DNA from: a virus
Lineage: Duplodnaviria > Heunggongvirae > Uroviricota > Caudoviricetes
Length of the DNA: 55,798 nucleotides
Reading direction: 5' to 3' (one strand)
Virus record (IMG/VR): IMGVR_UViG_3300031994_000001
Span: 1 to 55,798 of that record
Position numbers and translations under genes: made by a program. Below, in pieces: positions 986-22,664 of this stretch; positions within the stretch are counted from its first letter, which is position 1; every line of letters starts with the position of its first letter. The notes under the pieces are model-generated. The model was given only the letters and a program-made list of their open reading frames with translations. It did no database searches and had not been told where the DNA came from.

Positions 986-3900
986 TAGCGGAAGCGAGAT
1001 AATACTTGAAACTATTGGCAGACAATCGGCAAATACGCTTTTTGTTCAATTTAGACCGAGTTCAAATATTCCAGAGTATGATGGCGATAATAATTGTTAT
1101 ATACATTTTAACGATAATGTAACTATCATATTCAATCACGCATTTAATCACGACAAGTCTTATGTGTCGGACGATTCAAATGCAACTAATGACGATGCTA
1201 TGGGTGCGCCGCAAATGTTGGCTATATTTAATACAATAGATGGCGAAAAACCGTTATTTGAGGGAGTTGCTGCGAATGCGTATGTCCCGATTATGTATCG
1301 CGCACGCTTTGAGGAATTGGATAAAAATAATGTTAGACTTGTTGATAGTCTTCCCGTAATTGGTATAGACCCGATAACTGCGGAGAAATATGCAATAGGT
1401 ATATACGGGACTTATGAAAATGGTGCAAGCGATGAAGAATGGTCTGATGTTTACAGTGCGGAAGCGTATGATTTGTCTGAAAGCGGTATTGAGGAACACC
1501 ATTTCATTTATGAAAAATCATTTTATGGAAGTAACCATTCAACCAATTTCAAATATGGTGTTGGTGACGATTATGACGCTATATATAGTGGATGTAACAC
1601 ACAATCCTACACGTATTCGTTGCAAGGCATAAGCTGTGGTAATCCAGAATTGAAAGCATATCTTGAAAGTGTGTTTAGCAAAAATGACGATGTTGTGCTT
1701 CCGTGCCTTACAAAAATAGGTCATTTTGATACAATACATACATTTGATACTCAAAACATTGAAGAAAGTCAACAGAATACGTCTGATGATTTGAATACTC
1801 TTATCAACCATCTTATCAATATAAGTGGTGACTATTGTATTACTGATGCAGACGACTTTACTTATAGGGGTGGTACAAGTCCGAGTAATGTTGTGAAAAC
1901 GCACTTGGCTAAACCTGCATTTTTGGTTTTGAGAACCACGCATTTGTACCAAGTTGACAATTGGGGAAGTATGTTCACCAATCCTATGTTTATTGATGTT
2001 GAGGTTCAAAAGAGTGGATATACAGCGAAAAATATAACCCAAATAAGAAGTTATATATCGGGTGGTATTGGCGATGATTGGTATAAGTATAATGACTATG
2101 GATTGAGACCGAGTATGGGTGGACAAGCGAAATTGTATCGTGACTATCAACTCAATCTCTTGAACCCTGGTTCATCTCTCGGAGACAGAAACAAGGAATG
2201 GAAAAACACTTGGTCAAAGATAGACAATGACGGATTGTTTGGAAATCGTGTGTTTAATGGACTTGCCAATATATTTGGCAAACTTGGAGGAAGTTTCCCG
2301 CATTTGGATACACACGTATCCGAGGGATATACTACTGATTCCGTTGACAAACTGATAAAACTTTGGGAAATTGTGTCGTATAATTATTACAATGGCGGCG
2401 AATACAATGAGACATTGGGTCCAGGCACGGGAATATTTCCGATTGATAAAAAATACAGAACGAAAAACGGTTTGATAGAATTATCAAATGTTGAAAATGA
2501 GGATTGGCGTGCATTGGTTTTAAATATGAACCACAATACCAATGGTGCGGCATTTGCCCTTAACGGAACAACTTTAAGGACTGAACGTATATGGCAAAAT
2601 ACACAAGCCACACTTAATGCTGCTATTGTCGGAACATACAACTCTTATTATCAAGGTAGATTGGGTGGTGTGAATACGCCGTTCATATTTGGTTTTGATG
2701 CCCTTTGGAATTATCTTGAAAATTATCTGTATGGCTCAAGTTATGTTTCAAATCCATATTTGTCACAAAACTTTTGGCATATGGTTGATAGGGGATACAT
2801 CAGTGTTGGATATTGGAAAGATTTAGACCATTCTTACGGTGATTCGTTGCCTTATGACTTTGGGGGAAGTGCGCTTGGTATGAATACAACGCCTCCGTCT
2901 GACGGTAGCGGTAAATTGCGTGAATATTTTTGGAACGGTAGCCATACTGGTGAATTGATATGTCCTTGGCGATATCTGTTCAACAGTAACCATACCGATT
3001 GGAATCCGTGTTTGAAGTTGAAACGCGATGTTAGAAGTACATCTAATGTCAATTCGGGTCGTGGATTCAGAATTTTCTCTTGGTTTAACGGAAAACATAC
3101 AACGTCTCCAGAAACAAACAATTTCAAGAATTATAGGAACAGCAGCAATGTGAATTATAGACTGTTCTCAACCAATAGCAGTCAAAGTTTGTGCTACAGT
3201 TACACTATTATTGAAATTCCTCTTAACTATGAAGACGCAAGTTTAAATTCAGCAAAGGGCGGTGAAGTTAGCGGATATATCAGCGGCGTAAAGAGCGGCG
3301 GTGAAGGTCAATCACAAATTGCGAATATAAACGAGATTAACTTTGACGGATGCTGCTGTGATAATGTGCTTATCGCCACAAGAGTTGACAGTACAACAAA
3401 TAGGTTTAATTTAAGAGCGATTTCGGGTTCGTATCCATTGAACAGAAACGACAAATTTACTGTAATATTCAAAGATACGTATGATAATGCTCTTGACAGA
3501 CCTATGATGTTCATAGACGGCGATAACGACATTGATATATTTGGTTCAGATGTTGATGTTTCAAATAACACAACTCATCCGATAACTACTTTGGCTGTTG
3601 TGTATAAGAATACAAAAATCAATGGTACTAACCCGACAAAATCATTACCCGCTCCATTTATGGGAATTTCACCTATAAATGGCAACGAAATCAGTATAAC
3701 GGCATATTCTTCTTCTGACGCTGCATTGCGAAGCGGAGAAGTACATACATTCATATATGAAAAATGTTTGTATTATAAGCATAATAATTGCGCTTACAAC
3801 TACGGCGGTAACGGTAAGAATTGTGCAACTATGTGGTCAAACGGCGTGGAGTTGGCTAACTGCTCTTGGCTTGGTGAAAGCGGTAACAGTTCAGATGCAA

Positions 3901-5231
3901 ACAGTATGGTTATAACCGCCGCAATTAAAGTCGGTGACTTCGATACAGCGGGCAGCGGCGGTGGCGGCGGTGGCGAACAAGGTACGCAAGGAATACAAGG
4001 AGTCCAAGGTGTTCAAGGTCTCCAAGGTAAACAAGGCAGACAAGGCGTTCGCGGCTATCAAGGTTATCAAGGTGTCCAAGGTACAAGCGGCGGTGGCGGT
4101 TTGGAAGTCATTCTTCGCACAACAAAGGTTCATAACAATGTCTTCACTGTTGAGAGTGTATCTGGAATTTATCCTATTATAATAGAGCGGAACACAGTTG
4201 TTCGCATTCAGTTCAACCATAGTTTTGACCACGATTATCACGGTATGGGGTATAGTGAGCCGCAAATAATGTTCATAAAAGCATTGGATGAAAACCTTAT
4301 TATATTCAAACTTGATGACAATAGTGACTTTGATATTGGAGCATCGGATAATGAATTACCGTTATTCTATAGATATTATTGGGATAGAGGCAATGGTTTT
4401 ATGGGCGTGCCTGCTCCGATAATAGGAATAGACCCATTCAGCGGCGAAAACTATGCGATAGGTGTTAAGGGATTACAAGGTTTGACAAGAGGTGATACAC
4501 CCGCCCCGTTGTCCACACACGAATTTTTGTACACGTGTGATGTTAATTTCATCTTTAGCATTTCGGTTAATGGTCTTTATTATGGAAATTCTATGTATGG
4601 AACGGCTGCATATTATGACGGTTCTGCCGTTCCGTTCGAGTATGAGTTTAATTTGGAACATATGTCAGAAAATGTGGGTTCTGAAGCAAACACAGTAATT
4701 CGTTGGATGGAAATGGATTGTTATGGTCGCACTCGTCATTATGTTCCAACGCTTACGAAAGTCGGACATTTCAACACAGACCATTATATAAGAAGTTCTA
4801 AATCGAAAAAGGGTGCGTCCGCGCTTTATTCGGAAGAATCTGTCAACTTGGATACTCAAAACACATTGTCCTGCTCAACATCAGACACCAATGCGTCTTA
4901 CTTGTATGCCGCAGTTGAAACGGGTAAGGAAACAACGTTGAATGTTGACCTCAATGTCAACAACACATACGAGAATTATCTGTGTATCCAAAACAACGGA
5001 AAGACTGACTTGGATGTGGTGTTCAGCAGTGTCAAGTTCGGTGACGCAAAGAGTGTTGTAACGAAAGTCCCGTACACAAACGGCGTTGTTACAATCGCGG
5101 CAGGACGCTGTGTTGAGTTCTCAATCATAGGTCAAGAAGGCGGTGATGTCGTTGGAAGCAATAACGCTCTCGTTGTTGTGAAGATGAGCGACCCGATGTC
5201 AAGTATCACATTGGGGGAGATTGAAAAATAA
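3..5231 (+). CDS. Large collagen-like (Gly-X-Gln) virion/fibre protein, 5' partial
   Basis: Frame is open from the window edge; >100 G-X-Q triplets, a second short GXQ tract near 3978-4085, and three related globular domains ending in K[IV]G[HD]F[DN]T. Confidence 0.8.
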
Positions 5232-5644: not shown

Positions 5645-7075
5645 ATGAAAATACTTAACACGAAAGACTACGAAAGCGAATTGCTCGAAGGCAGAAATTC
5701 TGTCGGAGCAAAGTTGGGCAACAGCACGGAAGTGATTGACCCCGATAAGCCTGCGGGTGAAAACGAAACCATTGCAAGTATCGGCAAGACTGTTGTCAAA
5801 CTTGACAACTATGACGACTTCGAGGGAAAGCGTGCAGACAAGAACCCGTCACACGGTATGTTCTCTGTTGACGCTCCGTTGGAGTACAGCAAGAAACTGT
5901 TTACCGACAAGAAAGTTTGGAACGACAACCTTGAGGATTTGTTTGACGCAATCAAGGGTAAATCCGATTTCTTCGTTCAAGGTGAAGCGGGTTGGGCTAA
6001 AACCGCCCTCATTACACAAATGGCTAACAAGTGCGGATATACCGTTATCACGGTTTATTTGGACAAGGCTGTACCAGAGGATTTGGACGGACTTCCTGCC
6101 GTCAGAGAGGACAAGAACAGACAGAGCGGAATCGTGCAAGTGCGTGCGCTTCCCGTTTGGGCGCAGTATATGCTTGACCGCCCCAATGAAAAATTCCTCT
6201 TGTTCTTTGACGAAATGAACCAAGCAACAAGTGACGTTATGCACTCACTTATGCCTATCGTTCTGAAGCACGTCATCGGCGGTATCGAATTTGACAACTA
6301 CTTCTGTGGCGGTGCAGGTAATATGAGTTATGAGGATAACACCCTCGAATCAATCCCGAAGGCTCTTATGAGCCGTATGGGTGGTGCGCCTATCACTTGG
6401 ATTACGGGTACTCCCGAAGCGTGGAAAGAGGCGTTTGAATACCTCCACGGCGAATGGGACAACCAAATCTCAAAGGAAGTTGTCAGCGCATTTGAGAGAC
6501 ACGCAACCATTTTCGCAAGCCCGCGTGACATTGAAAAGAACATCTTTAAGAATGTCGCAACAATCAAGAACTCATTTGACGAGGACGATGAGTTCAACGA
6601 AAGAGACCGTGTTTCTGTCGGTTCTTTGGAACGCCGTATCAAGAGGCAGACCAACACAGTCGAAGGCAGACAGTACAATATCGGTGAGGGCAACGAATAC
6701 ACCGATGCCATCGCAAGCCAAGTTAGGGAACTTGCCGAGAAATGCTACGACTTCATCAACGGAAGCAGCAGCGGCAGAAAGTTCAATGAAGAACCCGAAC
6801 AGCAGGCAGACGAAAACGCCCCTACATTTGACAAGGACGAAATCAAGAGCATCATTGACTTGATTGTGTTCGGTGAAATGTCAGTCAGCGAGGACGACCC
6901 CGACACAATGGCCCCGATTACCCACGAGACAATCTTCGATTTCTTCCCATCAATGAACAAGGAACTCCTTAACTTCATTGACAAACAAATGGCTAAAGAG
7001 GGCAAGGAATGGATGTATCCGCACAACGAAGATGCCGTTAAGACGGGTAAGTGGACTCTTGACGAACTTGAATAA
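5645..7075 (+). CDS. MoxR-like AAA+ ATPase
   Basis: Variant Walker A GEAGWAKT, Walker B LLFFDEMN, AGN sensor, ALMSRM; adjacent VWA gene. Confidence 0.8.
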   Translation: MKILNTKDYESELLEGRNSVGAKLGNSTEVIDPDKPAGENETIASIGKTVVKLDNYDDFEGKRADKNPSHGMFSVDAPLEYSKKLFTDKKVWNDNLEDLFDAIKGKSDFFVQGEAGWAKTALITQMANKCGYTVITVYLDKAVPEDLDGLPAVREDKNRQSGIVQVRALPVWAQYMLDRPNEKFLLFFDEMNQATSDVMHSLMPIVLKHVIGGIEFDNYFCGGAGNMSYEDNTLESIPKALMSRMGGAPITWITGTPEAWKEAFEYLHGEWDNQISKEVVSAFERHATIFASPRDIEKNIFKNVATIKNSFDEDDEFNERDRVSVGSLERRIKRQTNTVEGRQYNIGEGNEYTDAIASQVRELAEKCYDFINGSSSGRKFNEEPEQQADENAPTFDKDEIKSIIDLIVFGEMSVSEDDPDTMAPITHETIFDFFPSMNKELLNFIDKQMAKEGKEWMYPHNEDAVKTGKWTLDELE

Positions 7076-11146: not shown

Positions 11147-11390
11147 AAAAAAAGAAAAAACCGCACAAAATGAGAAAAATGTCCGATATTCGACCAACTT
11201 CTGCATACTTGACAGTGTGCCAATTGTGGCTGCAATCAAGTAAACAGAATCTCTTTGGGGCGTACAATGTTGACGAATGTTGTCCGTAAAAAGATATATC
11301 GTACAGATACACAATAAGTTGGCGGTATATCAAAAATGTACCGCCAATTTTTTTTGAGTTTTTTTCGATTTTTGTTCGTTGTTTTTGGAA

Positions 11391-11671
11391 TTTTTATTAT
11401 ATTATACCGTAATCGTTCTTTGACATAATGAAAACCACCGATACCGCAGTTGAAATTTTTGAGCGGTTTTTCGGAAATTTTTATTATATTAGGAACAACG
11501 GCTCTTTGATATGATGAATGACGGAAGTCATAGGAAGAAAAAAGTTTTGCGACTTTCCGAAATTTTTATTATATTAGGGCATAAGGTTCTTTGTAATGAT
11601 AAAATCTGCGAGAGAAATTGTTAATGTCAGAATTTTTTATTATATTACATCGAACAGAGTTCTTTGACATA
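11391..11671 (+). promoter_or_regulatory. Four tandem units: TTTTTATTATATT motif + boxA-like G[TC]TCTTTG
   Basis: Motif at 11391/11478/11563/11634, each followed 23-25 nt later by gttctttgacata-like sequence (11415/11501/11586/11659). Confidence 0.75.
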
Positions 11672-11689
11672 TTGGCGAGAAGGCACTAT

Positions 11690-12836
11690 AAGGAAAACAT
11701 AGTACGACAACGGCATAATCGGAGTAATCCGAGAACGCTGTTGGTCGGAAGAATCAGACGGGTCTGAAGTCCATCGTGTTTCGGCACGTTGGACTTGAAA
11801 GACCTACTTCGCAGTTCCTGCGTGAAGAGCGCAGGCAACTTGGAGTGCATCAGAGGAGTAATCCTCTTTGGCGGGAAACCCCGATGTAGAACAACCCTAA
11901 AACGGTGGACACCCTTTTGGTTAAGGAAGTAAATTGTGGATAGGAATAAGATACACCACAAGCACTAAACAATACGGTGCAAGGGCAATACCGTGCTAAA
12001 TTGAGATAAACACGATGCCAATCGGAGCAAAGAAGTAGTGTTACTGTTACGCAATATACAGAATCTCATAAACGTGTAGAGAACATAGAGGTTGCACCTA
12101 TAGTCAGAACTGTATCGCAAGTGGGTAGAGCGGGTATGACCCTTAATAACTCGTTAAATGCAGGCTTGCGGTAACTTGCAAGCGTTTCTGATATGGTGAT
12201 AATATGCCCCAGACCACAACGTAGGAGTAGAAAGGAAGCCAACCCAAATGATTATACGGTGATTGGGTTACGAATACGGCTATGGTAACATAGAGTGGCA
12301 GGCAAAATCTTCAGCCTATTGCTGCGAAGTAAATTCATCTTTGGCGGCGGTACAGAACCGCTGTCATCTATCGGCACACAGCCCCCGTAACTCGGCGGCA
12401 GCAGCCGATTCTCCATCGGCGGGCACAATCCGCCGCACACCAAATCCCCGTTGAAACGATATATACGGGTTGCAACTGTCAGCGGAGTAGGTGCTGAACA
12501 CACTGACAGCCAAAGTACCGAAAGCCTAACGATTGGCGAGATAACGATTCAAGTCCAAGAGGCATTCCGAGATGTCGTGGGAAACCGTCCGACATAGCGG
12601 AGACACTTACAATTACACGTAGGGGGTTTGCTAATTACATTTCGCAGTAAACCCAACACGGCGGTTTACTTATGTGCTATGACCTTGGCGATTGACTGCG
12701 TTTCCGCTTATAGGAGAACAGCAGAGCAGTGGCGAGAAAATGTAAAAACTGGCGCAGTGACGCTTTCGCTTACACGTTCTACATTATCCAACGGTCACAT
12801 TAGAGGCGATTGTGTCGCCTTGTGTCATAGCATATA
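11690..12836 (+). ncRNA. Large highly structured ncRNA (family unassigned; GOLLD/ROOL size class)
   Basis: No credible ORF; many GUAA/GNRA/UUCG hairpins; long-range helices 11789-11799/12548-12558 and 12671-12683/12824-12836. Confidence 0.7.
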
Positions 12837-12852
12837 TGATTTATACATAAAT

Positions 12853-12925
12853 AGTCCTATCGGCAAGTGGTTTAAGCCACCACACTCTCAATGTGGAGTC
12901 ACGGGTTCGAATCCCGTTGGGACGA
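12853..12925 (+). tRNA. tRNA-Glu(CTC)
   Basis: ccaca-ctCTCaa-tgtgg, GTTCGAATC T loop. Confidence 0.9.
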
Positions 12926-12945
12926 CAAATTCAAAAACCAAAGTT

Positions 12946-13116
12946 ATGGATTCTGATACGATTAGACTTATCAAGAAGATGGAAGCCAACGCATTCTATC
13001 CTACATTCCCCGAAAAGGAATTTCGGTTCTACGACAAGAAGGTAGCGGAGGAAATTGCAAAGAGCGGGAAGAAAGAAATGAGAAAACTTCTGTCGAAGTT
13101 CAAACTTAAAAAATAG
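12946..13116 (+). CDS. Small basic hypothetical protein between tRNA-Glu copies
   Basis: 56 aa MDSDTIRLIKK...; stop overlaps next tRNA. Confidence 0.6.
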   Translation: MDSDTIRLIKKMEANAFYPTFPEKEFRFYDKKVAEEIAKSGKKEMRKLLSKFKLKK

Positions 13117-13187
13117 TCCTATCGGCAAGTGGTTTAAGCCGTCACCCTTTCACGGTGGAGTCACGGGTTCGAATCCCGTTGGGACTA
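13115..13187 (+). tRNA. tRNA-Glu(TTC)
   Basis: tcacc-ctTTCac-ggtgg. Confidence 0.92.
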
Positions 13188-13418
13188 CACTTCTATTCCG
13201 TAGTTGGTACTTCACACCACTCGTATATTGAAGCCATTTTACGCTGTTTTATGGTAAAAAACCGCCCCGTAAGCAGTTTTGGGTGAAGAACCGCTCTTTT
13301 TGCGTATATCGGGTTAGATGCGCACGGCTCTTTTTGATGGTTTTTCGAGTTGGTTAGGTAGTATGTGCGATTCGGCGGTGAAGTCGTTGGGGCGTGCGAC
13401 AAAAACCTTTTTTTCTTT

Positions 13419-13492
13419 GGGCCAGTAGTTCAGTTGGTAGAACGCCTGCCCTGCAAGCAGGATGTCGTGGGTTCGATTCCCATCTGTGTCCA
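13419..13492 (+). tRNA. tRNA-Ala(TGC), C33, bulged acceptor stem
   Basis: cctgc-ccTGCaa-gcagg; G3:U70 present. Confidence 0.8.
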
Positions 13493-13593
13493 CAAGGTGT
13501 AAATCAATCTCTTTACCCGCACCCGAAGACGCATATCTTCAACAGTATAAAGAAGGGGCAGAGGTCACGGCATCGGAAAGCGGTGCTAATTTT

Positions 13594-13667
13594 GGGCCAG
13601 TAGTTCAGTTGGTAGAACGCCTGCCCTGCAAGCAGGATGTCGTGGGTTCAATTCCCATCTGTGTCCA
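13594..13667 (+). tRNA. tRNA-Ala(TGC) second copy
   Basis: Near-identical to 13419-13492. Confidence 0.8.
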
Positions 13668-13669
13668 CA

Positions 13670-13739
13670 AAGGTGTTTACAGCAGACCATAAAATCAACT
13701 GTTTCATTTATAATCATTCGTTGCTTACAAAGCACCTTG
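13670..13739 (+). ncRNA. Free-standing stem-RCAGCA element 1
   Basis: aaggtgt-ttacagcag...gcaccttg. Confidence 0.6.
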
Positions 13740-13745
13740 TGAAAC

Positions 13746-13820
13746 AGTCCTATAGTTCAACGGATAGAACGGGGGTTTCCTAAACCTCTGATGCAAGTTC
13801 GATTCTTGTTAGGACTACCA
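13746..13820 (+). tRNA. tRNA-Arg(CCT)
   Basis: ggggt-ttCCTaa-acctc, encoded CCA. Confidence 0.9.
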
Positions 13821-13905
13821 ATGATAGATTGGGATAATACTATTAGTTAATGGTTTCATTGTACAAAGCAGTCTTGTCGGCTACCTCCGATTGCCGACAA
13901 GAAAC

Positions 13906-13978
13906 GGGGGTGTAGTTCAGTCGGTAGAACGGCGGACTGTTAATCCGTAAGTCGCAGGTTCGAGTCCTGCCGCCCCCG
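13906..13978 (+). tRNA. tRNA-Asn(GTT)
   Basis: gcgga-ctGTTaa-tccgt. Confidence 0.92.
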
Positions 13979-14157
13979 CAAAGCCGAGGTTGTGGTTCCA
14001 GCAGCCCGCGTGAGGCGCAAGTAGCGCGGTTGCAAGAGGTGTCGTGTCCGAGCAGTCCGCAAGGAAATCGTGGCGTTTAACCACGTTGCACGGTTGGCAC
14101 GGCTTAATAAGATTGGATGAGGGTCGGACAACGAGTGTCCGATGTGTAGGCTTTAAT

Positions 14158-14229
14158 CTTTCCGTAGTTCAACGAATAGAACGTTAGTTTACGGAACTAA
14201 AGATTGGGGTTTGAATCCCTGCGGGAAGA
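14158..14229 (+). tRNA. tRNA-Arg(ACG)
   Basis: ttagt-ttACGga-actaa. Confidence 0.85.
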
Positions 14230-14233
14230 CTAA

Positions 14234-14301
14234 AAGGTGCATACAGCAAACTATAACAGCATCAAACTTTTAATTTGAACTTCGCTAAACCAAGCACCTT
14301 G
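14234..14301 (+). ncRNA. Free-standing stem-RCAGCAA element 2 with Lys(TTT)-like anticodon stem-loop
   Basis: aaggtgc-atacagcaa...tcaaa-ctTTTaa-tttga...gcaccttg. Confidence 0.7.
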
Positions 14302-14350
14302 TTTTTCTTTGACTGCTGATTTTTTTTGTATTTTTCATAATTGTAGAGAA

Positions 14351-14402
14351 AAGATGTATGCAGCAATCCACGGAACGCAAATGAGTTTCTTTCAGCATCT
14401 TG
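14351..14402 (+). ncRNA. Free-standing stem-RCAGCAA element 3
   Basis: aagatgt-atgcagcaa...gcatcttg. Confidence 0.65.
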
Positions 14403-14455
14403 TTTCTTTTGTAAAATGCAAAAAATCAAAAAGATATATGAACTCACGCGGTTCT

Positions 14456-14529
14456 GGCCCCTTGGCGCAGTTGGTTAGCGCAACTGACTCATAATCAGAA
14501 GGTCGTAGGTTCAAGTCCTACAGGGGCCA
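14456..14529 (+). tRNA. tRNA-CAT, probably Ile2 (lysidine type)
   Basis: ctga-ctCATaa-tcag; ggcccct acceptor resembles bacterial Ile2. Confidence 0.85.
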
Positions 14530-14900
14530 CTTGTGGGAATGCGACCGAGACTGTAAAGCCAACTTCGTTTCCAACGACACAAAGTGCAGTTTTTATGATA
14601 TAAGTAATAAACGAGAATGTCTATCGGCTCTCAATCAGCATTGCTGACGGCTTTTGCCCCGCCGAGTTTTATGGTTTCCTGCACTTTTTTCCGATGGCTG
14701 AATAGCATAAACGGAAATGCGTCAATGCCGAAGTCAAGATGTGGGGTGTGGTGACACATCACCGTTCTGAAAATGGGGCGGGTATAATTCTGAAAAGTCG
14801 GGTTATAATGTTCGTTTTTCACGGTTGTTAGTCAACCACCCGATGAAATAGGCTCTTGCTTTGGCGAAGATTCAGAGGTTCGATTCCTCTGTCAGCCTCA

Positions 14901-14966
14901 AAGATACACACAGCAATCATTAAATCATAAAAAATTGTTGTTTAAGTTTTTTACCACAGTATCTTG
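14901..14966 (+). ncRNA. Free-standing stem-RCAGCAA element 4
   Basis: aagatac-acacagcaa...gtatcttg. Confidence 0.65.
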
Positions 14967-14978
14967 TTTTCTTTATAA

Positions 14979-15097
14979 TGGGAGATAGTGTAACGGAAGC
15001 ACACGTAATTTTTCGGTTCTTGTCAAAGAATTATGCAGCAAACAATAAAATTTGCTTTTGGGTAGCCGTGGTGTGGGTTCGATTCCCGCTCTCCCAA
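14979..15097 (+). tRNA. tRNA-Pro(TGG)-like with 48-nt insertion in the anticodon stem
   Basis: tgggaga/tctccca acceptor; cg[15006-15053]gct-ttTGGgt-agccg. Confidence 0.8.
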
Positions 15098-15103
15098 CAA
15101 AAC

Positions 15104-15175
15104 GGAGCATTAGGCTTAATGGTAAACTGACGGACTGTCTATCCGATGTTACGGGTTCGAATCCCGTATGTTCCG
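15104..15175 (+). tRNA. tRNA-Asp(GTC)
   Basis: cgga-ctGTCta-tccg. Confidence 0.85.
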
Positions 15176-15270
15176 CAAACGAAGTGACGTTTAATGCTGT
15201 ATAAGCGGAATTTTCCTGCGGCTCGAAAGTCGCGAATTTCGTGTCGCTGAAAGCAACCTATCCTTTGTCA

Positions 15271-15372
15271 GTATCTGTAGTGGCGAAGCATTGGTGAGAT
15301 TCCAATGTGGAGATGTCGGTCAGAACGTGAGGAAAAACCTCAAGGGCGCGGGTTCGACTCCTGCCAGATACG
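15271..15372 (+). ncRNA. tRNA-like RNA (acceptor + T arm, non-canonical core)
   Basis: gtatctg/cagatac, gcggg-ttcgact-cctgc; no recognisable anticodon arm. Confidence 0.65.
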
Positions 15373-15390
15373 CAATGTGAACTTATAGTG

Positions 15391-15812
15391 AAACATCTGT
15401 TGGAGGTAGGCTTGAGAGTAGCCATCCTTTAAAGAGTTGCGAGAGGTAGTAACTATATATGCGTGCGCAGCGTTGATTTAGGGTTACAAGAAACACCGTG
15501 GCAGGTAACTTGGTCGCTACGGGTCCCCTCACGGAGTCATAAGCACAAATGCCCGATGTCCAATTTTTAGTCTGAAATGGCGAAGTTTCCTTTGGGCGTG
15601 ACGGATTATTTAGGTGTCGGAGACAAGTATGACAGATAAGGTGCAACAGTACGGGAGGAGACTGCACTTAACATTTAACCATCGTGAATGGTATGGTGGA
15701 CGGGAAATGACGAAATTCCCGCACGCCGTGGGTGCATCAAGTTAAGCCCACGCTTGAATGTCTGTGGAACAGCCGTTGGAGCATTTGGTGTAAAAACACA
15801 CAACTGATGTTT
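15391..15812 (+). ncRNA. 23S rRNA factor-binding-centre mimic (split H43/H44 plus sarcin-ricin-like loop)
   Basis: GGAGGTAGGCTTGAGAGTAGCCATCCTTTAAAGAG ... GTGTAAAAACACAC closed by gttg/caac and aaacatc/gatgttt; internal gtgca-acAGTACGGGAGGAgac-tgcac. Confidence 0.75.
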
Positions 15813-15909
15813 TCTTTGACATAAGGGGTTTATAGATACCTACGGCAACCCATACAAAACTCAAACCGAAAAATTTGATTGACAATGTATCTTGTTACCC
15901 TTTTTTGAT

Positions 15910-15980
15910 AGGGATATGGTGTAACGGTAGCACAACAGATTTTGGTTCTGTTGGTCAAGGTTCGAATCCTTGTATCCCCG
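15910..15980 (+). tRNA. tRNA-Gln(TTG)
   Basis: acaga-ttTTGgt-tctgt. Confidence 0.9.
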
Positions 15981-16018
15981 CTAATGCACAACACATAACA
16001 CATTGCGCAACACAACAA

Positions 16019-16089
16019 TGGGCTATGGTGTAATGGTAGCACAACAGATTTTGGTTCTGTTGGTCAAGGTTCGAATCCTTGTAGCCCAA
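16019..16089 (+). tRNA. tRNA-Gln(TTG) second copy
   Basis: Same anticodon and T arm, different acceptor stem. Confidence 0.9.
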
Positions 16090-16094
16090 CGATA

Positions 16095-16445
16095 CGGTGA
16101 ATTGCACACCGTCTATCCAAGTGCAGCAGGCTTGCACCGAAGCCGACAGACACGTGATGAGATAAGTATAATAATTTTGTTGTCGGCTGTTTGGGTGACG
16201 AACCCGCAAAAGTGTCAAGTGACATTCCCGTTAGCAGACGGAGAGAGCCGAAGGCGGTAGTCGGTTGCGGAATAGTTCCTAACGGTGGTATCTGCGTGAT
16301 GGGTCTATCCATTCGCCGAACAAGGGTTTGATACCATATAGCGCAGGAATAACGCCTGCGGTTTGCATCGCGGGTGTTTGTATCAAACAGAAAGGGTTCA
16401 CCGCAGCAGTGAAAGGTGGTTGAAAGTGTGCAATGCTTTCAATGT
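16095..16445 (+). ncRNA. Unassigned structured RNA
   Basis: cggtgaa/ttcaccg long-range pairing plus multiple hairpins, no credible ORF. Confidence 0.45.
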
Positions 16446-16457
16446 GCTGTAACTTAT

Positions 16458-16533
16458 GGGGCGGTAGCGTAGGTGGTTATTTGCGCGTTGGTCTGAAAAA
16501 CCAAAGGCGGTTGTTCAACTCAACCCCGCCCCA
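16458..16533 (+). tRNA. tRNA-Phe(GAA)
   Basis: ttggt-ctGAAaa-accaa. Confidence 0.88.
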
Positions 16534-16538
16534 CAATA

Positions 16539-16602
16539 AAGGTGATAACAGCAATTTTTTTAGAACATCAAACTGTAACTTTGAAATGTCTAATTCACCT
16601 TG
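16539..16602 (+). ncRNA. Free-standing stem-RCAGCAA element 5 with Tyr(GTA)-like anticodon stem-loop
   Basis: aaggtga-taacagcaa...tcaaa-ctGTAac-tttga...tcaccttg. Confidence 0.7.
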
Positions 16603-16638
16603 TTTTTTTTGAATGTCTAACAATTAAAAATAGTAGAG

Positions 16639-17142
16639 ATGATTTTCGAGACACTTGACAAACACATTGCGGACGCTATGTTCGAGGAAAAGAACAGCAC
16701 CGCGAAGTTGAAAACGAATTTTTGGAAAGGCGTTAAGACCGAAATGGTGAACGCCGTCCACAACGGAGTGAAACTTCCGAATGACGAGGAAGAAACGAAG
16801 ATTCTCCGTTCAATGCTGAAGCGATGCCGCACGGCTGCGCAGGAGTTTGCCAAGGCAGGTGACGATAACAAAGTCGCTGTCGAAAACAGAAAGGTAAACG
16901 AGTTCGAGGCTGCTGAACTTGAAAAACTCCTGCCGAAAGAGCCTACCGTTGAGGAAGTGTATAATGAGACGGTCAAGCAGGTTGATATGTTCGTTGCCGA
17001 GAAACTTGGCGAGGACGAGAATTTCAGCGTCAAACAACTACAACGCTTCACAAAGGACATCATTGCGAAAGTCAAGGCTAAATACCCCAACGCGAACAAC
17101 GGTGTCATTGCGAATGTCGTGAAAGAGATTGCCAACAAGTAG
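16639..17142 (+). CDS. yqeY: GatB/YqeY domain protein
   Basis: IADAM...ILRSMLKR...AAQEFAKAG...E.AELEKLLPKE...VIANVVKE pattern. Confidence 0.8.
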   Translation: MIFETLDKHIADAMFEEKNSTAKLKTNFWKGVKTEMVNAVHNGVKLPNDEEETKILRSMLKRCRTAAQEFAKAGDDNKVAVENRKVNEFEAAELEKLLPKEPTVEEVYNETVKQVDMFVAEKLGEDENFSVKQLQRFTKDIIAKVKAKYPNANNGVIANVVKEIANK

Positions 17143-17153
17143 TTGGCACAAAT

Positions 17154-17238
17154 GGGAGTGCGGTCACGATGGTGGAGTGGCGGCGGTCTGTAAAACCGTT
17201 ACAACGAAACACAGTAGGTTCGAATCCTACCACTCCCA
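17154..17238 (+). tRNA. tRNA-Tyr(GTA)
   Basis: gcggt-ctGTAaa-accgt, long variable arm. Confidence 0.88.
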
Positions 17239-17345
17239 CGTGAAAAGGTGTAGTGTTGTTTACCGTTTTGTCAAAATGCACCAACCAACCTTGAGCAGCG
17301 CGTGTAAAAAGGCTTGCAAGGAGGACAAAACCAAAACGGAGTTAC

Positions 17346-17465
17346 GCGGACATAGTTTAATGGTAGAACGCGATAATCACAACGGTTCTTGACAAGAATT
17401 ATGCAGCAACTTTTTCGATTCGGTATTCCAAACCCGAAGTGCAGGTTCGAATCCTGCTGTCCGCT
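17346..17465 (+). tRNA. tRNA-Gly(TCC)-like with 49-nt insertion in the anticodon stem
   Basis: gcggaca/tgtccgc, U73; cg[17373-17421]ggt-atTCCaa-acccg. Confidence 0.78.
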
Positions 17466-17480
17466 CAAAGTTTTCCAAAT

Positions 17481-17599
17481 GGGGGTGTAGTTCAATTGGT
17501 AGAATGCGTATTTAACGCACCTCGTAAGAGGTACACGCAGCAAACTTTTTCTATGGTCTGTCACACCCGTGGTTGTAGGTTCGAGTCCTGCCGCCCCCG
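17481..17599 (+). tRNA. tRNA-Asp(GTC)-like with 46-nt insertion in the anticodon stem
   Basis: gggggtg/cgccccc, G73; cg[17509-17554]ggt-ctGTCac-acccg. Confidence 0.8.
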
Positions 17600-17745
17600 C
17601 CCTGCCCCAATAAGGCTTTTTGAATTGTATGCACGAGTTCGGTTGCGTGTGCTTTTGTATTGTAAGTATAGCATATCCGATAAGGAAGGTAAGAGTGTGA
17701 TTCTCTTTCTGAAGTTACTGCTCCGAATATCACATTCAGTTCAGT

Positions 17746-17808
17746 TGGACATATTGTAAATGCAGCATATCTGATAAGGAAGGTTTCGGTTCATATCCGA
17801 ATGTTCAG
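17746..17808 (+). pseudogene. Degenerate tRNA-like sequence
   Basis: tggacat/atgttca and ttcgg-ttcatat-ccgaa; partial duplicate at ~17658-17690. Confidence 0.4.
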
Positions 17809-17815
17809 CAAACAG

Positions 17816-17889
17816 TGCGGAATAGGGAAGAGGTCAATCCCGCAAGGCTCATAACCTTGAAACCGCAGGTTCGAATCCTGCTTCCGCTA
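17816..17889 (+). tRNA. tRNA-Met(CAT), initiator-like
   Basis: 1:72 mismatch, caagg-ctCATaa-ccttg. Confidence 0.85.
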
Positions 17890-17939
17890 CAAGGAGCAAA
17901 GCGCGGCTTCAACTTCGGAAAAGCGCAAACCGAAGTACC

Positions 17940-18008
17940 GAAACGTGATGTAATGTCAGCATATCTTCGAGTGCAGAGGAAAGTCTTGGTTTGAATCCAA
18001 GCGTTTCA
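17940..18008 (+). pseudogene. Degenerate tRNA-like sequence (GTG in loop, no U33)
   Basis: gaaacgt/gcgtttc, tcttc-gaGTGca-gagga, cttgg-tttgaat-ccaag. Confidence 0.5.
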
Positions 18009-18017
18009 ACAAAACAG

Positions 18018-18089
18018 TGCGGGATGACGCAGTGGCAGCGTGCAAGGCTCATAACCTTGAAGTCGGGGGTTCAAGTCCCTCTCCCGCTA
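18018..18089 (+). tRNA. tRNA-Met(CAT), initiator-like second copy
   Basis: 1:72 mismatch, caagg-ctCATaa-ccttg. Confidence 0.88.
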
Positions 18090-18272
18090 CAATATAGTGA
18101 CAGAAGTGTTCGGATAGATTGCACAGCCTCTTTTCCGCTCTTTAAGAACCGAGTTTATTATCAATACACAAGCGGAATGCTTCCGTGGCTGTTCGGACAT
18201 CAACCTGCCCGTGCGCGGCATAGCCGCCTTTCTTCACGAACTCGGCAAACCAGCCGACTGCACTATATATTT

Positions 18273-18347
18273 GCGGGTGTAGCACAACGGTTAGTGTAGG
18301 AGATTTCCAATCTTCTAATGTGGGTTCGATTCCCATCATCCGCTCCA
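18273..18347 (+). tRNA. tRNA-Gly(TCC)
   Basis: gaga-ttTCCaa-tctt, encoded CCA. Confidence 0.9.
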
Positions 18348-18498
18348 CATAACTTGACAAGGTTGTGTAAAGTGTGGTCACGAACCACAACCCGTCCGTG
18401 CGAGCGGGCGCGGGGGATGCGGGAATATCCCGAAAAGATACGAAATCCCGTGGTGTAGGTTATCTGTATATTCCACCGAAGAAGAACAGAATATTTTT

Positions 18499-18582
18499 GG
18501 GCGAGTGGCGGAATTGGCAGACGCGCAAGTTTGAGGGACTTGTCTCCGAAAGGGGGTGTGGGTTCAAATCCCATCTTGCCCA
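18499..18582 (+). tRNA. tRNA-Leu(GAG)
   Basis: caagt-ttGAGgg-acttg, long variable arm. Confidence 0.92.
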
Positions 18583-18728
18583 CCCAATAGAAGGTGTTTA
18601 CCAAATAGGCACATTCGCTTATATCCAAGGTTCTTTAAGAGAGTTATGGAGCGAACTCACACGGTTAGTATGGACACAGATATATAGGATGGCGAGGCTT
18701 CATAAGCAAATGCCTATTTTTCCCAATC

Positions 18729-18812
18729 GGGTGAGTGGCGGAATTGGCAGACGCGGCAGCATCAGAGGCTGTTGCCCGCAATGGCTTGTGGGTTCGAGTC
18801 CCACCTCGCCCA
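18729..18812 (+). tRNA. tRNA-Leu(CAG)
   Basis: gcagc-atCAGag-gctgt. Confidence 0.88.
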
Positions 18813-18830
18813 CAAATCTGCTTACTGTTC

Positions 18831-18910
18831 GGGCGAGTGGCGGAATTGGCAGACGCGGTAGTTTTAGGCACTACTGCTTCGGCGTGCGGGTTCGAACCCC
18901 GCCTTGCCCA
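18831..18910 (+). tRNA. tRNA-Leu(TAG)
   Basis: gtagt-ttTAGgc-actac. Confidence 0.92.
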
Positions 18911-18917
18911 CTTCAAC

Positions 18918-19001
18918 GGGCGAGTGGCGAAATTGGTAAACGCGGCAGACTTAAAATTTGCTGCCCGAAAGGGCTTGTGGGTTCGAGTCCCACCTTGCCT
19001 A
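18918..19001 (+). tRNA. tRNA-Leu(TAA)
   Basis: gcaga-ctTAAaa-tttgc. Confidence 0.92.
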
Positions 19002-19018
19002 CACAAAAACTTAATAAT

Positions 19019-19219
19019 ATGAGTGCAAACCTTAATGATTTGATAAAGTCGAAACTGTTTTCTATCGGCGAGGAACAAGCCGAAACAGTCAAGCAGGAAA
19101 TTGACAAACTCTGCAAAGCGGAATCTTCATCTGTTGATGAACTTACCAAGTTGGAGGAATATTTGAGAAAGAAAATGCTTGACGAACTTGCCATACCGAA
19201 AGAACGGTTCAATCAATAG
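19019..19219 (+). CDS. Small hypothetical protein
   Basis: 66 aa MSANLNDLIK..., AT-rich upstream context. Confidence 0.65.
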   Translation: MSANLNDLIKSKLFSIGEEQAETVKQEIDKLCKAESSSVDELTKLEEYLRKKMLDELAIPKERFNQ

Positions 19220-19351
19220 AAACAATCCGCAAACCCGAAACGAGAGGGTGTGGGTAATAAGCCTCGTCCTGCACTTCGTAGAAAGCAGGTAGAGCGAGAA
19301 CGGTGGCAACGCCGCGCTATCAAGATTAAATAACTACTGCGGATTCATTTT

Positions 19352-19436
19352 GGTCAAGTGGCGGAATTGGCAGACGCGATAGACTCAAAATCTATTGCCC
19401 GATAAGGGCGTGAGGGTTCGACCCCCTCCTTGACCA
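19352..19436 (+). tRNA. tRNA-Leu(CAA)
   Basis: ataga-ctCAAaa-tctat. Confidence 0.92.
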
Positions 19437-19541
19437 CGCTGAAAGCGGCTGCATACCGTGAGTACGTTGGCGTTTCGGATTTTCTAATTGTTGGTGCTAC
19501 GCTTTTTGTGGTTGCGCACAACAGTCCCCTAATGGAGCAAT

Positions 19542-19612
19542 GTCTGCGTGTCCGAGTGGTTAGGAGGCGGTCTGCAAAACCGTCAACGGCGGTTCAATTC
19601 CGTCCGCAGACT
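19542..19612 (+). tRNA. tRNA-Cys(GCA)
   Basis: gcggt-ctGCAaa-accgt, U73. Confidence 0.92.
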
Positions 19613-19621
19613 CGTTATATG

Positions 19622-19649
19622 GGGGTTGTAATTCAATGGTAGAGCATCG
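19622..19649 (+). pseudogene. tRNA 5' fragment truncated by endonuclease cassette
   Basis: ggggttg-ta-attcaatggtagagc-atcg then TATAAATA (19650-19657). Confidence 0.6.
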
Positions 19650-19674
19650 TATAAATATTATAAAAAATGATATT

Positions 19675-20478
19675 ATGTATGTATGCAAATATTGTGGAAA
19701 AGAATTAAAAAGACCTTGTGCATTGGGAATACACGAGCGTACTTGTAAAAACAACCCAAACCGAAAACCTTTGGAAAAACACGTATGTGGTTATGGCATA
19801 TATCGTGCAAAAACATCAAATGTTGAAGATAATAGAAGATGTAAGTTTTGTGGAAAGGCTTGTAAAAATGAGAATTCTTGTCAAAATCACGAGCGTACTT
19901 GTCCTAAAAATCCAGATAGGAAGTATGTCAATGGTATGAAAGGAAAACCTGCTTGGAATAAAGGTTTGACAAAGGAAACTGATTCTCGTGTTGCAAAATC
20001 CGCAAATACATTAAAACAAAGATATGCTGATAAAATATATACATCACCGTCAAAGGGTAAATCAATGTCAGAAGAGCAAAAGAAAAAAATTTCAGATACA
20101 ATGAAACGGTATTTATCTGATAATCCAAGCAAAACACCGTATGTGTTAAATCATCATTCGCACGGTGATAGTTATCCAGAAAAATATTTTAAAAGTATTT
20201 TTGATTTTAATAATATAAAATATGAACAAAATTATTTTACTTGTGGTTATTTTTTGGATTTTGCTTTTGTTGATTCTAAACAATATATTGAAATTGACGG
20301 GGAACAGCACTATGTTGACAATAGGATAGTGAAACACGATAAAATACGAACAGATAAATTACTTAAAAACGGATGGGAATGTATTATGCGTGTTCGTTGG
20401 AGTGAATATAAAAAAATGGAAAAATCAGAACAAGAAGAATTTGTTACAAATATGATTAAATTAATAATGTCGCGGTAG
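19675..20478 (+). CDS. Free-standing homing-type endonuclease (Zn fingers, NUMOD3-like motifs, DUF559/Vsr-like nuclease)
   Basis: Two CxxC..HERTC fingers, KGKPAWNKGLTKE and MSEEQKKKISD motifs, FLDFA..YIEIDGEQH..HDKIRTDKL..GW; visibly more AT-rich than flanks. Confidence 0.8.
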   Translation: MYVCKYCGKELKRPCALGIHERTCKNNPNRKPLEKHVCGYGIYRAKTSNVEDNRRCKFCGKACKNENSCQNHERTCPKNPDRKYVNGMKGKPAWNKGLTKETDSRVAKSANTLKQRYADKIYTSPSKGKSMSEEQKKKISDTMKRYLSDNPSKTPYVLNHHSHGDSYPEKYFKSIFDFNNIKYEQNYFTCGYFLDFAFVDSKQYIEIDGEQHYVDNRIVKHDKIRTDKLLKNGWECIMRVRWSEYKKMEKSEQEEFVTNMIKLIMSR

Positions 20479-20541
20479 CATAATTGGTAATGCTCTTGAC
20501 TTTTAATCAAGAGAGTACGAGTTCGAGTCTCGTCCGCGACA
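20469..20541 (+). tRNA. tRNA-Lys(TTT)
   Basis: cttga-ctTTTaa-tcaag; overlaps endonuclease stop codon. Confidence 0.9.
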
Positions 20542-20560
20542 CAATTCAAAACCGATTGTT

Positions 20561-20716
20561 ATGTGGATAGTGATATTGTTTCTGTTTTTAGTTTTTGCGA
20601 TAATAATCCTTGCTGTCGGTATAATCTGCGCTATGTTGGGTGAAGCCAACAAGCCGTTGGACGACTACAAAAGGGATGATTGCATAGGGGAATTTGACGA
20701 TTTGAACGGGATATAG
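20561..20716 (+). CDS. Small single-TM protein (51 aa)
   Basis: MWIVILFLFLVFAIIILAVGIICAMLG + acidic tail; below ORF-track cutoff. Confidence 0.55.
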   Translation: MWIVILFLFLVFAIIILAVGIICAMLGEANKPLDDYKRDDCIGEFDDLNGI

Positions 20717-20729
20717 GGCGAATACTCAC

Positions 20730-21062
20730 GCGAGTTGTGTGCCGCAATAACCACGACAAAATGGGGTCGGTACGGGAAAGCGGAGGAATAGTGCAAACAT
20801 TGGGTCGGTACGCTTTAGACCGCTGAAGATAAGTGGCGGGGTCTCGGTGTCTCCAAGTGACTACGGAACTCTTGGAATGAGTGCTTTTTATTGTTAATCA
20901 TAAATCATCCAAACAGCCAAGCGAGGTGTGTGCTGAACATAACCACGGCAAAATGGTGTCGGTACGGGAAAACGGCAGAAATATGGTACTCATCGGGTTG
21001 GCACGCTTTAGACCGCTGAACATAAGTGGCGGAATCTCGGTGCATCCAAGTGACTACGTAAC
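20730..21062 (+). repeat. Two diverged ~140-bp direct repeats
   Basis: 20730-20869 and 20921-21062 share gtcggtacgggaaa, acgctttagaccgctgaa, tccaagtgactacg. Confidence 0.85.
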
Positions 21063-21139
21063 GATAATGCGATAAGAAAATGGTGTAGAGCATACGGAAT
21101 GTCTGATAAGGCAAAAGATTATAAGAAATGTAATAATTT

Positions 21140-21211
21140 GGGTGAGTAGCAAAATGGTACTGCACTTGACTCTTAATCAAGGGACTGTGGGTCCGAGTCC
21201 CACCTCACCCA
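21140..21211 (+). tRNA. tRNA-Lys(CTT)
   Basis: cttga-ctCTTaa-tcaag; T loop TCC variant. Confidence 0.88.
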
Positions 21212-21218
21212 CAAATAT

Positions 21219-21292
21219 TGGCGGGTAGTTCAATGGATTAGAACGGTTGACTTCTAATCAACTGGTTATGGGTTCGAGTCCCATCTCGCCAA
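21219..21292 (+). tRNA. tRNA-Arg(TCT)
   Basis: gttga-ctTCTaa-tcaac. Confidence 0.9.
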
Positions 21293-21539
21293 CAAGGTTA
21301 AAATGTCGGAAAATGTCACTTCGTGTGGGACGCGAACACACAGTACGGCAGGCGGTGACAAAGAGTATGGTTAAGTATAAAATCGCCGTTGTATCGTTTG
21401 CGCAAACGGTGCAATGTGAAATGATAGTCGTCTTGGTGTGTACAGCCATTCGGTGAAAGGGGCGAATCTAAAACACATCTACCGCAACCTTTTTTCTTGA
21501 AGAAAAACGCTTGTTTTTTAGCGATATAAATAAAAAAGT

Positions 21540-21611
21540 GCCAGCGTAGCATAATGGTAGTGCAACTGATTTGTAATCAGTCGGTTGTGGGTTCGACTCC
21601 CTCCGCTGGCT
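21540..21611 (+). tRNA. tRNA-Thr(TGT)
   Basis: actga-ttTGTaa-tcagt; TATAAATA at 21525-21532. Confidence 0.9.
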
Positions 21612-21634
21612 CAATTTTCTAAACCTATAATCCA

Positions 21635-21907
21635 ATGACACAAGAGGAGATAGATTGCAGGGCTGCTGATTACGCGCACGAAAAAGGTGTTGAGCCTAAC
21701 ACACTCGTTCCCATACCAAAGAAAGATTTGGAAGTTGGCGCGACTTACGGTGGCGAGTGCAGGAATGCGAGTAAAGCGGTTTGGAATGGCAAAGTGTTCA
21801 CATACAAACGCTACAAATTCGGCGACATATTTGATGAGGACATAAACCATTTCGAGGACGATGACGGATATGATGTTTTCGTTCCATTTGAGAAAATAAA
21901 AGTATAA
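21635..21907 (+). CDS. Hypothetical protein
   Basis: 90 aa ORF, YGGECRNA..AVWNGKVF..INHFEDDDGYDVFVP. Confidence 0.75.
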   Translation: MTQEEIDCRAADYAHEKGVEPNTLVPIPKKDLEVGATYGGECRNASKAVWNGKVFTYKRYKFGDIFDEDINHFEDDDGYDVFVPFEKIKV

Positions 21908-21930
21908 AAATCAACTTGTATAATATATAA

Positions 21931-22097
21931 ACATTGGTCAGTAGAAGACCTTAAAACCTCGGTGGGGAACACCGAGTACAGTCGTGGAGTTATGAACAAA
22001 CCAAGTGGAACAATCAAGTTAATTGATGACTGCTTGGATAACAGTGAAGCGATTATTGAACTTGAAGTCCTACAAGACTAAAGGGATAATTCCGAAA
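21931..22097 (+). mobile_element. ~170-bp dispersed element copy 1, possible tnpB 3' end/omegaRNA remnant
   Basis: Closely similar inverted copy at 48897-49073; ctcggtg-gggaa-caccgag hairpin; vestigial frame SVGNTEYSRG. Confidence 0.5.
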
Positions 22098-22269
22098 TTG
22101 GAGACACGCAACTAATGCTCCGAGTGGACGCTTGCACACTTATTTAGGTTAAGCCGACCCCGTAGAGAGACCACGGATTGCCCAAGCGCAGGGCTTACCG
22201 TTGCGGGGGGAAGTGATACAGAATGGACAGAGGGATTGTTGCTTACCCTTTGCCAAAGTTTCTCAAAAT

Positions 22270-22342
22270 GCGGGCATAGCACAGTTGGTAGTGCGTGACG
22301 TTGCCAACGTCAAGGTCGCGGGTTCGAATCCCGTTGCCCGCT
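22270..22342 (+). tRNA. tRNA-Gly(GCC)
   Basis: tgacg-ttGCCaa-cgtca. Confidence 0.92.
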
Positions 22343-22416
22343 CAACTGAAACATAAAACGTGTGCGGCTTGGTTATTAGGAGGCTTGCGCCCGCCCAAGA
22401 CCCTACCACGTTCTTT

Positions 22417-22489
22417 CGGGTAGTAACGCAGTTGGTAGCGTGCTGCATTTGGGATGCAGAAGTCGAAGGTTCGAGTCCTTTCTACCCGA
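22417..22489 (+). tRNA. tRNA-Pro(TGG)
   Basis: ctgca-ttTGGga-tgcag. Confidence 0.92.
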
Positions 22490-22663: not shown

Positions 22664-22664
22664 C

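Follow-up and report, generated by a model that had tools for sequence, protein, structure and literature searches.

The window analyzed here, which is the first 55.8 kb (55,798 nt) of a 413-kb virus record, contains on its + strand a 493-nt sequence without an ORF (11810-12302) that we identify with high confidence as a group I intron. This assignment draws on homology to tRNA introns, covariation of the helices, the U·G pair at the 5′ splice site, the guide pairings, and the terminal G. The predicted intron forms the central 43% of a stretch (11690-12836) that had been put forward as an ornate noncoding RNA of about 1.1 kb, possibly of a new class, or as two adjacent RNAs. Much of that interpretation stood: the stretch is noncoding and richly structured, heads a tRNA island, is neither GOLLD nor ROOL, and holds more than one RNA. 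The proposal of a new class did not hold for the core. The explanation we favor, to which we give somewhat better than even chances, is that the intron is competent for splicing, sits in the leader of a tRNA operon, descends from the intron of a tRNA-Leu(UAA) gene, and is flanked by exons that serve mainly as scaffolding.

Genomic setting and coding potential

The flagged stretch lies between four tandem promoter-like repeat units (11383-11674, + strand; repeat families D1, D2, and D4) and tRNA-Glu(CUC) (12853-12926, + strand), the first gene of a 36-gene tRNA array that extends on the + strand from 12853 to 26987. Repeat and promoter scans thus agree with the earlier description of an element that follows four promoter-like repeats directly and opens the tRNA island. 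The promoter scan places sigma-70-like −35/−10 pairs within the repeats at 11459-11487, 11547-11575, and 11618-11646 on the + strand, and the last transcript from the repeats would be expected to start near 11653. The unit before the repeats ends in a strong terminator-like hairpin (11316-11350), and the sole terminator-like site between the promoters and tRNA-Glu is a weak one in the P8 extension of the intron. Given the promoter-like sites upstream and the absence of a real terminator before tRNA-Glu, the stretch is best read as the leader of the tRNA operon, and the 5′ end of tRNA-Glu (12853) as the expected RNase P cut that would free it.

Elsewhere in the window, an ORF of 1736 aa (21-5231) carries collagen triple-helix repeats (Pfam PF01391, E=6.8e-53). 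Within the array, three Rfam tRNA matches are 119-120 nt long (14979-15097, 17346-17465, and 17481-17599), with inserts of about 46-49 nt; these tRNAs were missed by aragorn at default settings and are unrelated to the group I family described below.

Under code 11, the frames overlapping 11690-12836 reach 91 aa at most, with one exception: a frame of 162 aa (12628-13116) that reads through tRNA-Glu and that we consider spurious. Pfam returned no credible match for the five largest of the overlapping frames that lie within the region, and joining the exons in silico opened only a start-poor frame of 77 codons without an ATG. Long ORFs elsewhere in the window use the standard code, which rules out a recoding artifact. 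The ORF listing and the Pfam searches are therefore in line with the original prediction of no plausible ORF.

A cmscan of the whole window against Rfam at the gathering threshold gave no match in the region, and searches at E≤10 of 11300-13000, 11790-12320, and 12296-12852 returned only chance-level matches, none of them a credible full-length hit of the kind that would have pointed to a known family. Neither ROOL nor GOLLD appeared in the window at gathering or in the region at E≤10, in keeping with the earlier reluctance to assign the stretch to either. Among the rejected candidates, c-di-GMP-I-UAU at 11703-11750 (17.8 bits, E=1.2, against a gathering threshold of 65.9) is most likely a chance match, and rmf (16.1 bits) and several microRNA and snoRNA models scored at chance level.

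The core is a member of a family of tRNA introns

Homologues of the core came from giant phages. A blastn search of the region against 50,697 phage genomes returned no match. Nor did a homologue of the RNA turn up in 80 neighborhoods of genes related to the adjacent PhoH, which is too widespread to serve as a marker of kinship. Giant-phage records (190-435 kb) were reached through the AAA-type protein encoded at 5645-7075, and against these the 1147-nt query matched only over its positions 177-621, that is, window 11866-12310. In one relative, the matching sequence was the 3′-terminal part of a roughly 395-nt insertion in a tRNA-like gene. Overall, relatives were found only for 11843-12310, and this sharp internal boundary of homology fits the suggestion that the stretch contains more than one RNA.

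The 21-mer at the 3′ end of the intron, GGCTATGGTAACATAGAGTGG, is shared by 26 IMG/VR stretches and four MAG contigs. The resulting family comprises over 30 copies, introns of 390-640 nt in rumen-type giant phages. When introns were allowed, aragorn placed the copies of the relatives in the anticodon loop of a tRNA wherever both flanks were present. The hosts include tRNA-Leu(UAA), tRNA-Arg(UCU), tRNA-Lys(UUU), tRNA-Tyr, and others, with at least four anticodon types among loci L106-L131, L145, and L150-L153, and three insertion points occur in the anticodon loop, following U34, nucleotide 35, or nucleotide 36. Host tRNA types are intermixed in a tree of the intron cores, which suggests that the family has hopped repeatedly between tRNA genes. 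All copies recovered by a scan with a pattern of the P7 block were embedded in tRNAs, apart from one partial match. Within the family, the window copy alone was found without a surrounding tRNA, and it is the only match to the family profile in the 413-kb genome.

Several further observations concern the relatives and their surroundings. The P9 of the L122 copy is enlarged by a long insert that looks like a small ORF, possibly a homing endonuclease gene. One close relative of the phage comes from the rumen: locus L152 lies in ONIZ01000001.1 (410,106 bp), deposited under the title 'uncultured Firmicutes bacterium RUG343', which equals record G001 in length and has the motif at the corresponding position. 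This rumen MAG record, which has the same sequence as G001, appears to be a phage genome. Record G001 (410 kb) also holds, at L103 715-943, a second, unrelated-looking group I intron in tRNA-Arg(UCU); it scores 46.6 bits against RF00028, just under gathering, and lies about 150 nt upstream of the family intron of the next tRNA. That neighboring family copy (L103, approximately 1128-1522) has no P1 segment and no U at position −1, and may be decayed. In the contig of a related phage, not far from its tRNA array, L115 550-609 resembles a twister-P1 ribozyme (52.9 bits against a gathering threshold of 67.2, E=3.6e-9). Within the promoter repeats of the window, the 25-nt sequence GATACCGCAGTTGAAATTTTTGAGC (11440-11464) resembles the 5′ strand of the family P3′-P8 region (nhmmer E=0.096) and could be a stray piece of an intron or simply a coincidence.

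Fold and covariation of the intron

We aligned 23 distinct relatives and the window copy with MAFFT. A profile HMM built from the 23 relatives, with the window left out, matched 11866-12313 at E=1.5e-50. The alignment shows the canonical helix order P3-P4-P5-P6-P7-P3′-P8-P7′-P9, including the P3/P7 pseudoknot. We scored 44 pairs belonging to nine of the core helices (inner P2, P3-P7, P9.0, and P9): 95.6% of the cells are paired and 26 of the pairs show two-sided changes, values that none of 500 partner shuffles matched; sliding the partner by 1-3 columns lowered pairing to 37-48%. Homolog covariation, named in the original prediction as a check, thus supports the core as a set of group I helices. 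The window copy has canonical pairs at 42 of the 44 scored positions and retains 103 of 117 near-invariant columns, with most of its 14 differences being compensatory changes in P3, P8, and P9, indicating that the fold was maintained during divergence. Judged from its sequence, the intron is of the bacterial tRNA-intron type.

The predicted elements all lie on the + strand. P2 is formed by 11847-50/11884-87 and 11870-74/11879-82, with a GAAA loop, and is followed by P3 (11892-96/12090-94), P4 (11902-07/11989-94), P5 (11912-16/11981-85), P5a (11962-65/11977-80), and P6 (12002-07/12063-68). P7 pairs 12079 and 12081-86 with 12204-10. P8 (12096-109/12186-97) contains a tetraloop-receptor-like motif, seen across the family in the alignment as CCUAAG...UAUGG. 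The 3′ part of the intron contains P9.0 (12214-17/12295-98), P9 (12220-23/12275-78), and a terminal hairpin with a GUAA loop (12280-93).

All four tetraloop hairpins noted earlier were recovered (11719-11732, 11852-11867, 11775-11788, and 12280-12293). Two of them are peripheral elements of the intron: agagga-gtaa-tcctct (11852-11867) is a window-specific insertion in P2, and ctatg-gtaa-catag (12280-12293) is the terminal hairpin.

P7 retains both G12081-C12209, which is invariant in 24/24 copies, and G12079-C12210. It also contains two adjacent A·C mismatches, 12082·12208 and 12083·12207. The latter is unique among the 24 copies, and the former is shared by three copies in apparently intact tRNAs. 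These mismatches could weaken or abolish catalysis.

The Rfam group I model RF00028 (Intron_gpI) did not score the window at E≤10, nor did it score eight loci that hold family members, and it is blind to the whole family. The core is a known class that this model misses, rather than the new class first proposed. The failure fits the remark that the seeds of RF00028 are non-bacterial (Williams 2020, doi 10.1101/2020.01.27.920355). The RF00028-type intron at L103 715-943 shares the J6/7-P7-P3′ block with the family, for example with 93% identity over 29 nt (E=1.6e-7).

Splice sites and predicted splicing pathway

The 5′ splice site is predicted after U11809, where exon nucleotides UACUU (11805-11809) face the guide GAGUG (11843-11847) on the + strand to form P1. 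All four pairs with the guide GAGU are present (4/4), including the U11809·G11843 wobble, and the P1 loop carries an extra hairpin (11810-11839). P10 pairs 11840-11842 (UUG) with 12303-12305 (CAA), again with all pairs present (3/3), and matches the window's own unusual 3′ exon start: its C:G pair is missing from the tRNA-Leu copies and fits the extra C that opens the 3′ exon here. The terminal G of the intron is G12302, and all copies of the family end in GUGG-YANG immediately before the 3′ exon.

The guide covaries with the host exon, being GAGU opposite CUU (Leu, Lys, and one Arg type), GGAU opposite UCU (Arg), and GCAU opposite UGU, and P10 covaries with the first bases of the 3′ exon across the relatives. 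The family appears to spread among Leu, Arg, Lys, Tyr, and other tRNA genes through adjustment of a guide of 3-4 nt.

In the pathway that we infer, the 1.1-kb stretch would be a composite 5′ leader of the tRNA-operon transcript. Free guanosine would attack after U11809, which would be held in P1 by the guide GAGU; the terminal G12302 would then occupy the G-binding site in P7, P10 (UUG/CAA) would align the 3′ exon, and the exons would be joined. The product would be a leader of about 680 nt, which RNase P would cut off at the 5′ end of tRNA-Glu (12853). Exon-exon helices (11795-11802/12308-12314, and UACUUC/GAAGUA once ligated) would replace the anticodon stem and hold the splice sites together.

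Structure of the flanking exons

Folding of the flanks, which together measure about 680 nt, is far stronger than that of shuffled sequence. The 5′ exon, the first part of the leader (11676-11809, + strand), ends in ...UACUU and has a minimum free energy (MFE) of −46.6 kcal/mol compared with −30.6 kcal/mol for shuffles (z −4.45). It contains two strong local hairpins, one with a GUAA loop (11705-11747) and one with a UUCG loop (11760-11805). Domain a of the 3′ exon (12303-12660, + strand) is a run of G+C-rich hairpins with a z of −4.58, compared with −2.3 to +0.5 for nine coding or spacer stretches of the same length. Domain b (12661-12852, + strand) abuts the first tRNA and contains inverted repeat I2, whose arms form the 13-bp helix 12671-12683/12824-12836 of the original prediction (92% complementary). 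This last segment of about 190 nt has a z of only −1.7, which is no different from the controls.

The 11-bp helix 11789-11799/12548-12558, also described earlier, is 100% complementary and belongs to a larger set. There are three perfect long-range helices of at least 10 bp, where dinucleotide shuffles average 0.44 (p about 0.011). The 5′ arms of all three fall within 11772-11814, and 0/1000 shuffles showed such clustering. This 43-nt segment on the + strand spans the 5′ splice site and supplies the 5′ arms of perfect helices of 10-11 bp. On the + strand, 11772-81 pairs with 12008-17 in the P6 extension of the intron, 11789-99 with 12548-58 in the 3′ exon, and 11805-14 with 12322-31, also in the 3′ exon; the distal partners of the latter two helices (12548-12558 and 12322-12331) thus fall in domain a. 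Each of the three competes with a local helix or with P1, and MFE folding favors the local hairpins and P1. Together, the very strong folding of the flanks and the clustering of the long-range helices appear to exceed what a passive leader would require.

We searched for relatives of the flanks (11676-11842 and 12311-12852) and found no homologue in nine related full genome records, none in a 20-mer scan of IMG/VR, and no paralogue in the 413-kb genome. A junction pattern run against metagenome contigs gave four matches, all of them chance matches without an intron. Because the nearest protein relatives of this phage (G000) are only about 40% identical, the absence of flank homologues is weak evidence. 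No second intron was detected in the flanks with the family HMM or with the RF00028-type intron of L103.

The hexamer TTGGCG occurs five times within 1 kb on the + strand (11672-12690), about ten times its window-wide density, and is also over-represented in the window as a whole (60 occurrences against 32 expected). The sequence TGGCGAGA recurs three times, at 11673, 12534, and 12730.

The flanks do not resemble a tRNA. With introns of up to 1400 nt allowed, aragorn found no tRNA around the window copy, and on the ligated exons it found no credible tRNA, a relaxed threshold giving two implausible calls. Where a tRNA host has its anticodon stem, the window has the exon-exon helix 11795-11802/12308-12314, which closes a 12-nt loop holding the junction.

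Origin and alternative explanations

Most likely, the window copy descends from an intron-bearing tRNA-Leu(UAA) gene, as judged by its Leu-type guide, the start of its 3′ exon, and the position of tRNAs with Leu-type introns at the head of arrays elsewhere. The 3′ exon starts with C followed by AAAAUCU, compared with AAAAUC(U/C) in the Leu hosts. In L113, L121, L123, and L131, from phages that are otherwise unrelated, the local tRNA array opens with an intron-bearing tRNA-Leu(UAA), and in L128 a single tRNA lies 2.9 kb upstream of it. A gene of this kind at the head of the array would have had its tRNA body replaced by other folded RNA. The proposed ancestry rests on about eight exon nucleotides and the array-head position, the rest of the flanks not being tRNA-like. 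Arrays headed by a Leu-type intron showed no synteny with this phage, and the phages that carry them have no PhoH.

The absence of a tRNA body also suits a rather doubtful alternative, that of a dead relic: a decayed intron-bearing tRNA gene at the array head that no longer splices and leaves 1.1 kb of inert spacer in the precursor. The two A·C mismatches in P7, of which one occurs in no other copy, and the flanks without homologues are compatible with such decay, as is an intact, intron-less tRNA-Leu(UAA) elsewhere in the island (18918-19002), which makes the window copy dispensable. However, free decay should erode the core pairs, the fit of P1 and P10, and the folding of the flanks. Instead, nearly all scored core pairs are canonical (42/44), the differences from the family consensus are mostly compensatory, P1 and P10 match the present non-tRNA flanks, down to the C:G pair missing in the tRNA-Leu copies, and the flanks fold better than both shuffles and local controls. 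The same folding, at z values of −4.45 and −4.58 beyond the control range, could mean that ligation of the exons yields a large structured phage RNA (~680 nt) that is new and has a function of its own, with the intron a passenger removed during maturation. This would agree with the clustering of three long-range helices, the five copies of UUGGCG in 1 kb of the + strand, the maintained splice-site pairings, and the fact that GOLLD and ROOL, other large phage RNAs, adjoin tRNA arrays. We consider it unlikely, as the exons have no homologue in the nine related records, the IMG/VR pattern scans, or the one metagenome scan, match no Rfam family, and over their last 190 nt fold no better than controls.

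The three long-range helices, each competing with a local helix or P1, bear on a further reading, in which alternative helices at the 5′ splice site act as a switch for P1. Splicing, and with it how much operon tRNA is made or how it is processed, would then respond to a signal or to folding during transcription; the c-di-GMP-II riboswitch coupled to a group I ribozyme in Clostridioides difficile is the precedent. Pairing of 11805-14 with 12322-31 would indeed sequester the splice site, and the 5′ exon contains the very weak c-di-GMP-I-like match. Yet that match lies far below gathering and is most likely chance, no ligand-binding aptamer is recognizable, and MFE folding prefers the local hairpins and P1, making a regulated ribozyme leader quite improbable. 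The leading idea of the original prediction, one ornate RNA of a new class spanning 1.1 kb, would account for the missing Rfam match and for the many GNRA hairpins and long-range helices, but is hardly tenable: homology to cleanly tRNA-bounded introns in over 30 places extends helix by helix through the central 493 nt, and none of those copies shares the flanks. A bolder proposal, which we regard as doubtful, combines several of these elements. The spliced flanks would be a new folded phage RNA of about 680 nt, or a radically remodeled descendant of tRNA-Leu, whose maturation, and perhaps the output of the 36 tRNAs, would be gated by a switch of three helices. Against these alternatives, we retain the splicing-competent intron of tRNA-Leu(UAA) descent, with exons acting mainly as scaffolding, as the preferred explanation.

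Comparison with known systems

The closest described counterpart is the bacterial tRNA-Leu(UAA) group I intron of the cyanobacterial type 'Leu.3Ug', which is spliced as CUU/a...g/AAAA (Williams 2020, doi 10.1101/2020.01.27.920355). The Leu copies of the present family share its insertion point after U34, along with the U·G wobble, the terminal G, and the order of the core helices, and the window copy keeps the Leu-type guide GAGU and the 3′ exon start (C)AAAAUC. The window intron differs in its length of 493 nt, with large extensions in P1, P2, P5, P6, P8, and P9, in the lack of a tRNA, and in a junction loop of 12 nt instead of the 7-nt anticodon loop. With P1 and P10 fitted to its new flanks, it would be a natural case of a tRNA intron outliving its host gene.

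Further similarities are presumably shared with the IC3 ribozymes of Azoarcus tRNA-Ile and Anabaena tRNA-Leu. We take the J3/4-P4 string AAAUUCGG, the J6/7-P7-P3′ block GUG-N-AGAGACU...ACGGGAG-UACC, and an L2 GAAA loop facing an 11-nt receptor in P8 (CCUAAG...UAUGG) to be common to both. Unlike these ribozymes, the window copy has GAACAU/AUGCCC in P7, with the two A·C mismatches, and CCUAUAG in the receptor. The core is a known class in an unusual non-tRNA context. The Rfam group I model misses this whole family of large tRNA introns, which is common in rumen-type giant phages.

In a 5′ leader of Clostridioides difficile, a group I ribozyme is coupled to a c-di-GMP-II riboswitch. Both systems place a group I intron in a noncoding leader with alternative pairings of the splice site. 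The window contains no recognizable aptamer, in contrast, and its downstream genes are tRNAs rather than an mRNA with a ribosome-binding site built by splicing.

GOLLD and ROOL are large phage RNAs found beside tRNA arrays, and the stretch described here is likewise large, noncoding, phage-associated, and next to tRNA genes. It matches neither of their Rfam models even at E≤10, however, and its core belongs to a different, known class of ribozyme, so that a candidate for a new ornate RNA is largely reassigned. The remaining novelty is carried by the strongly folded flanks, which provide a test case for a function of their own.
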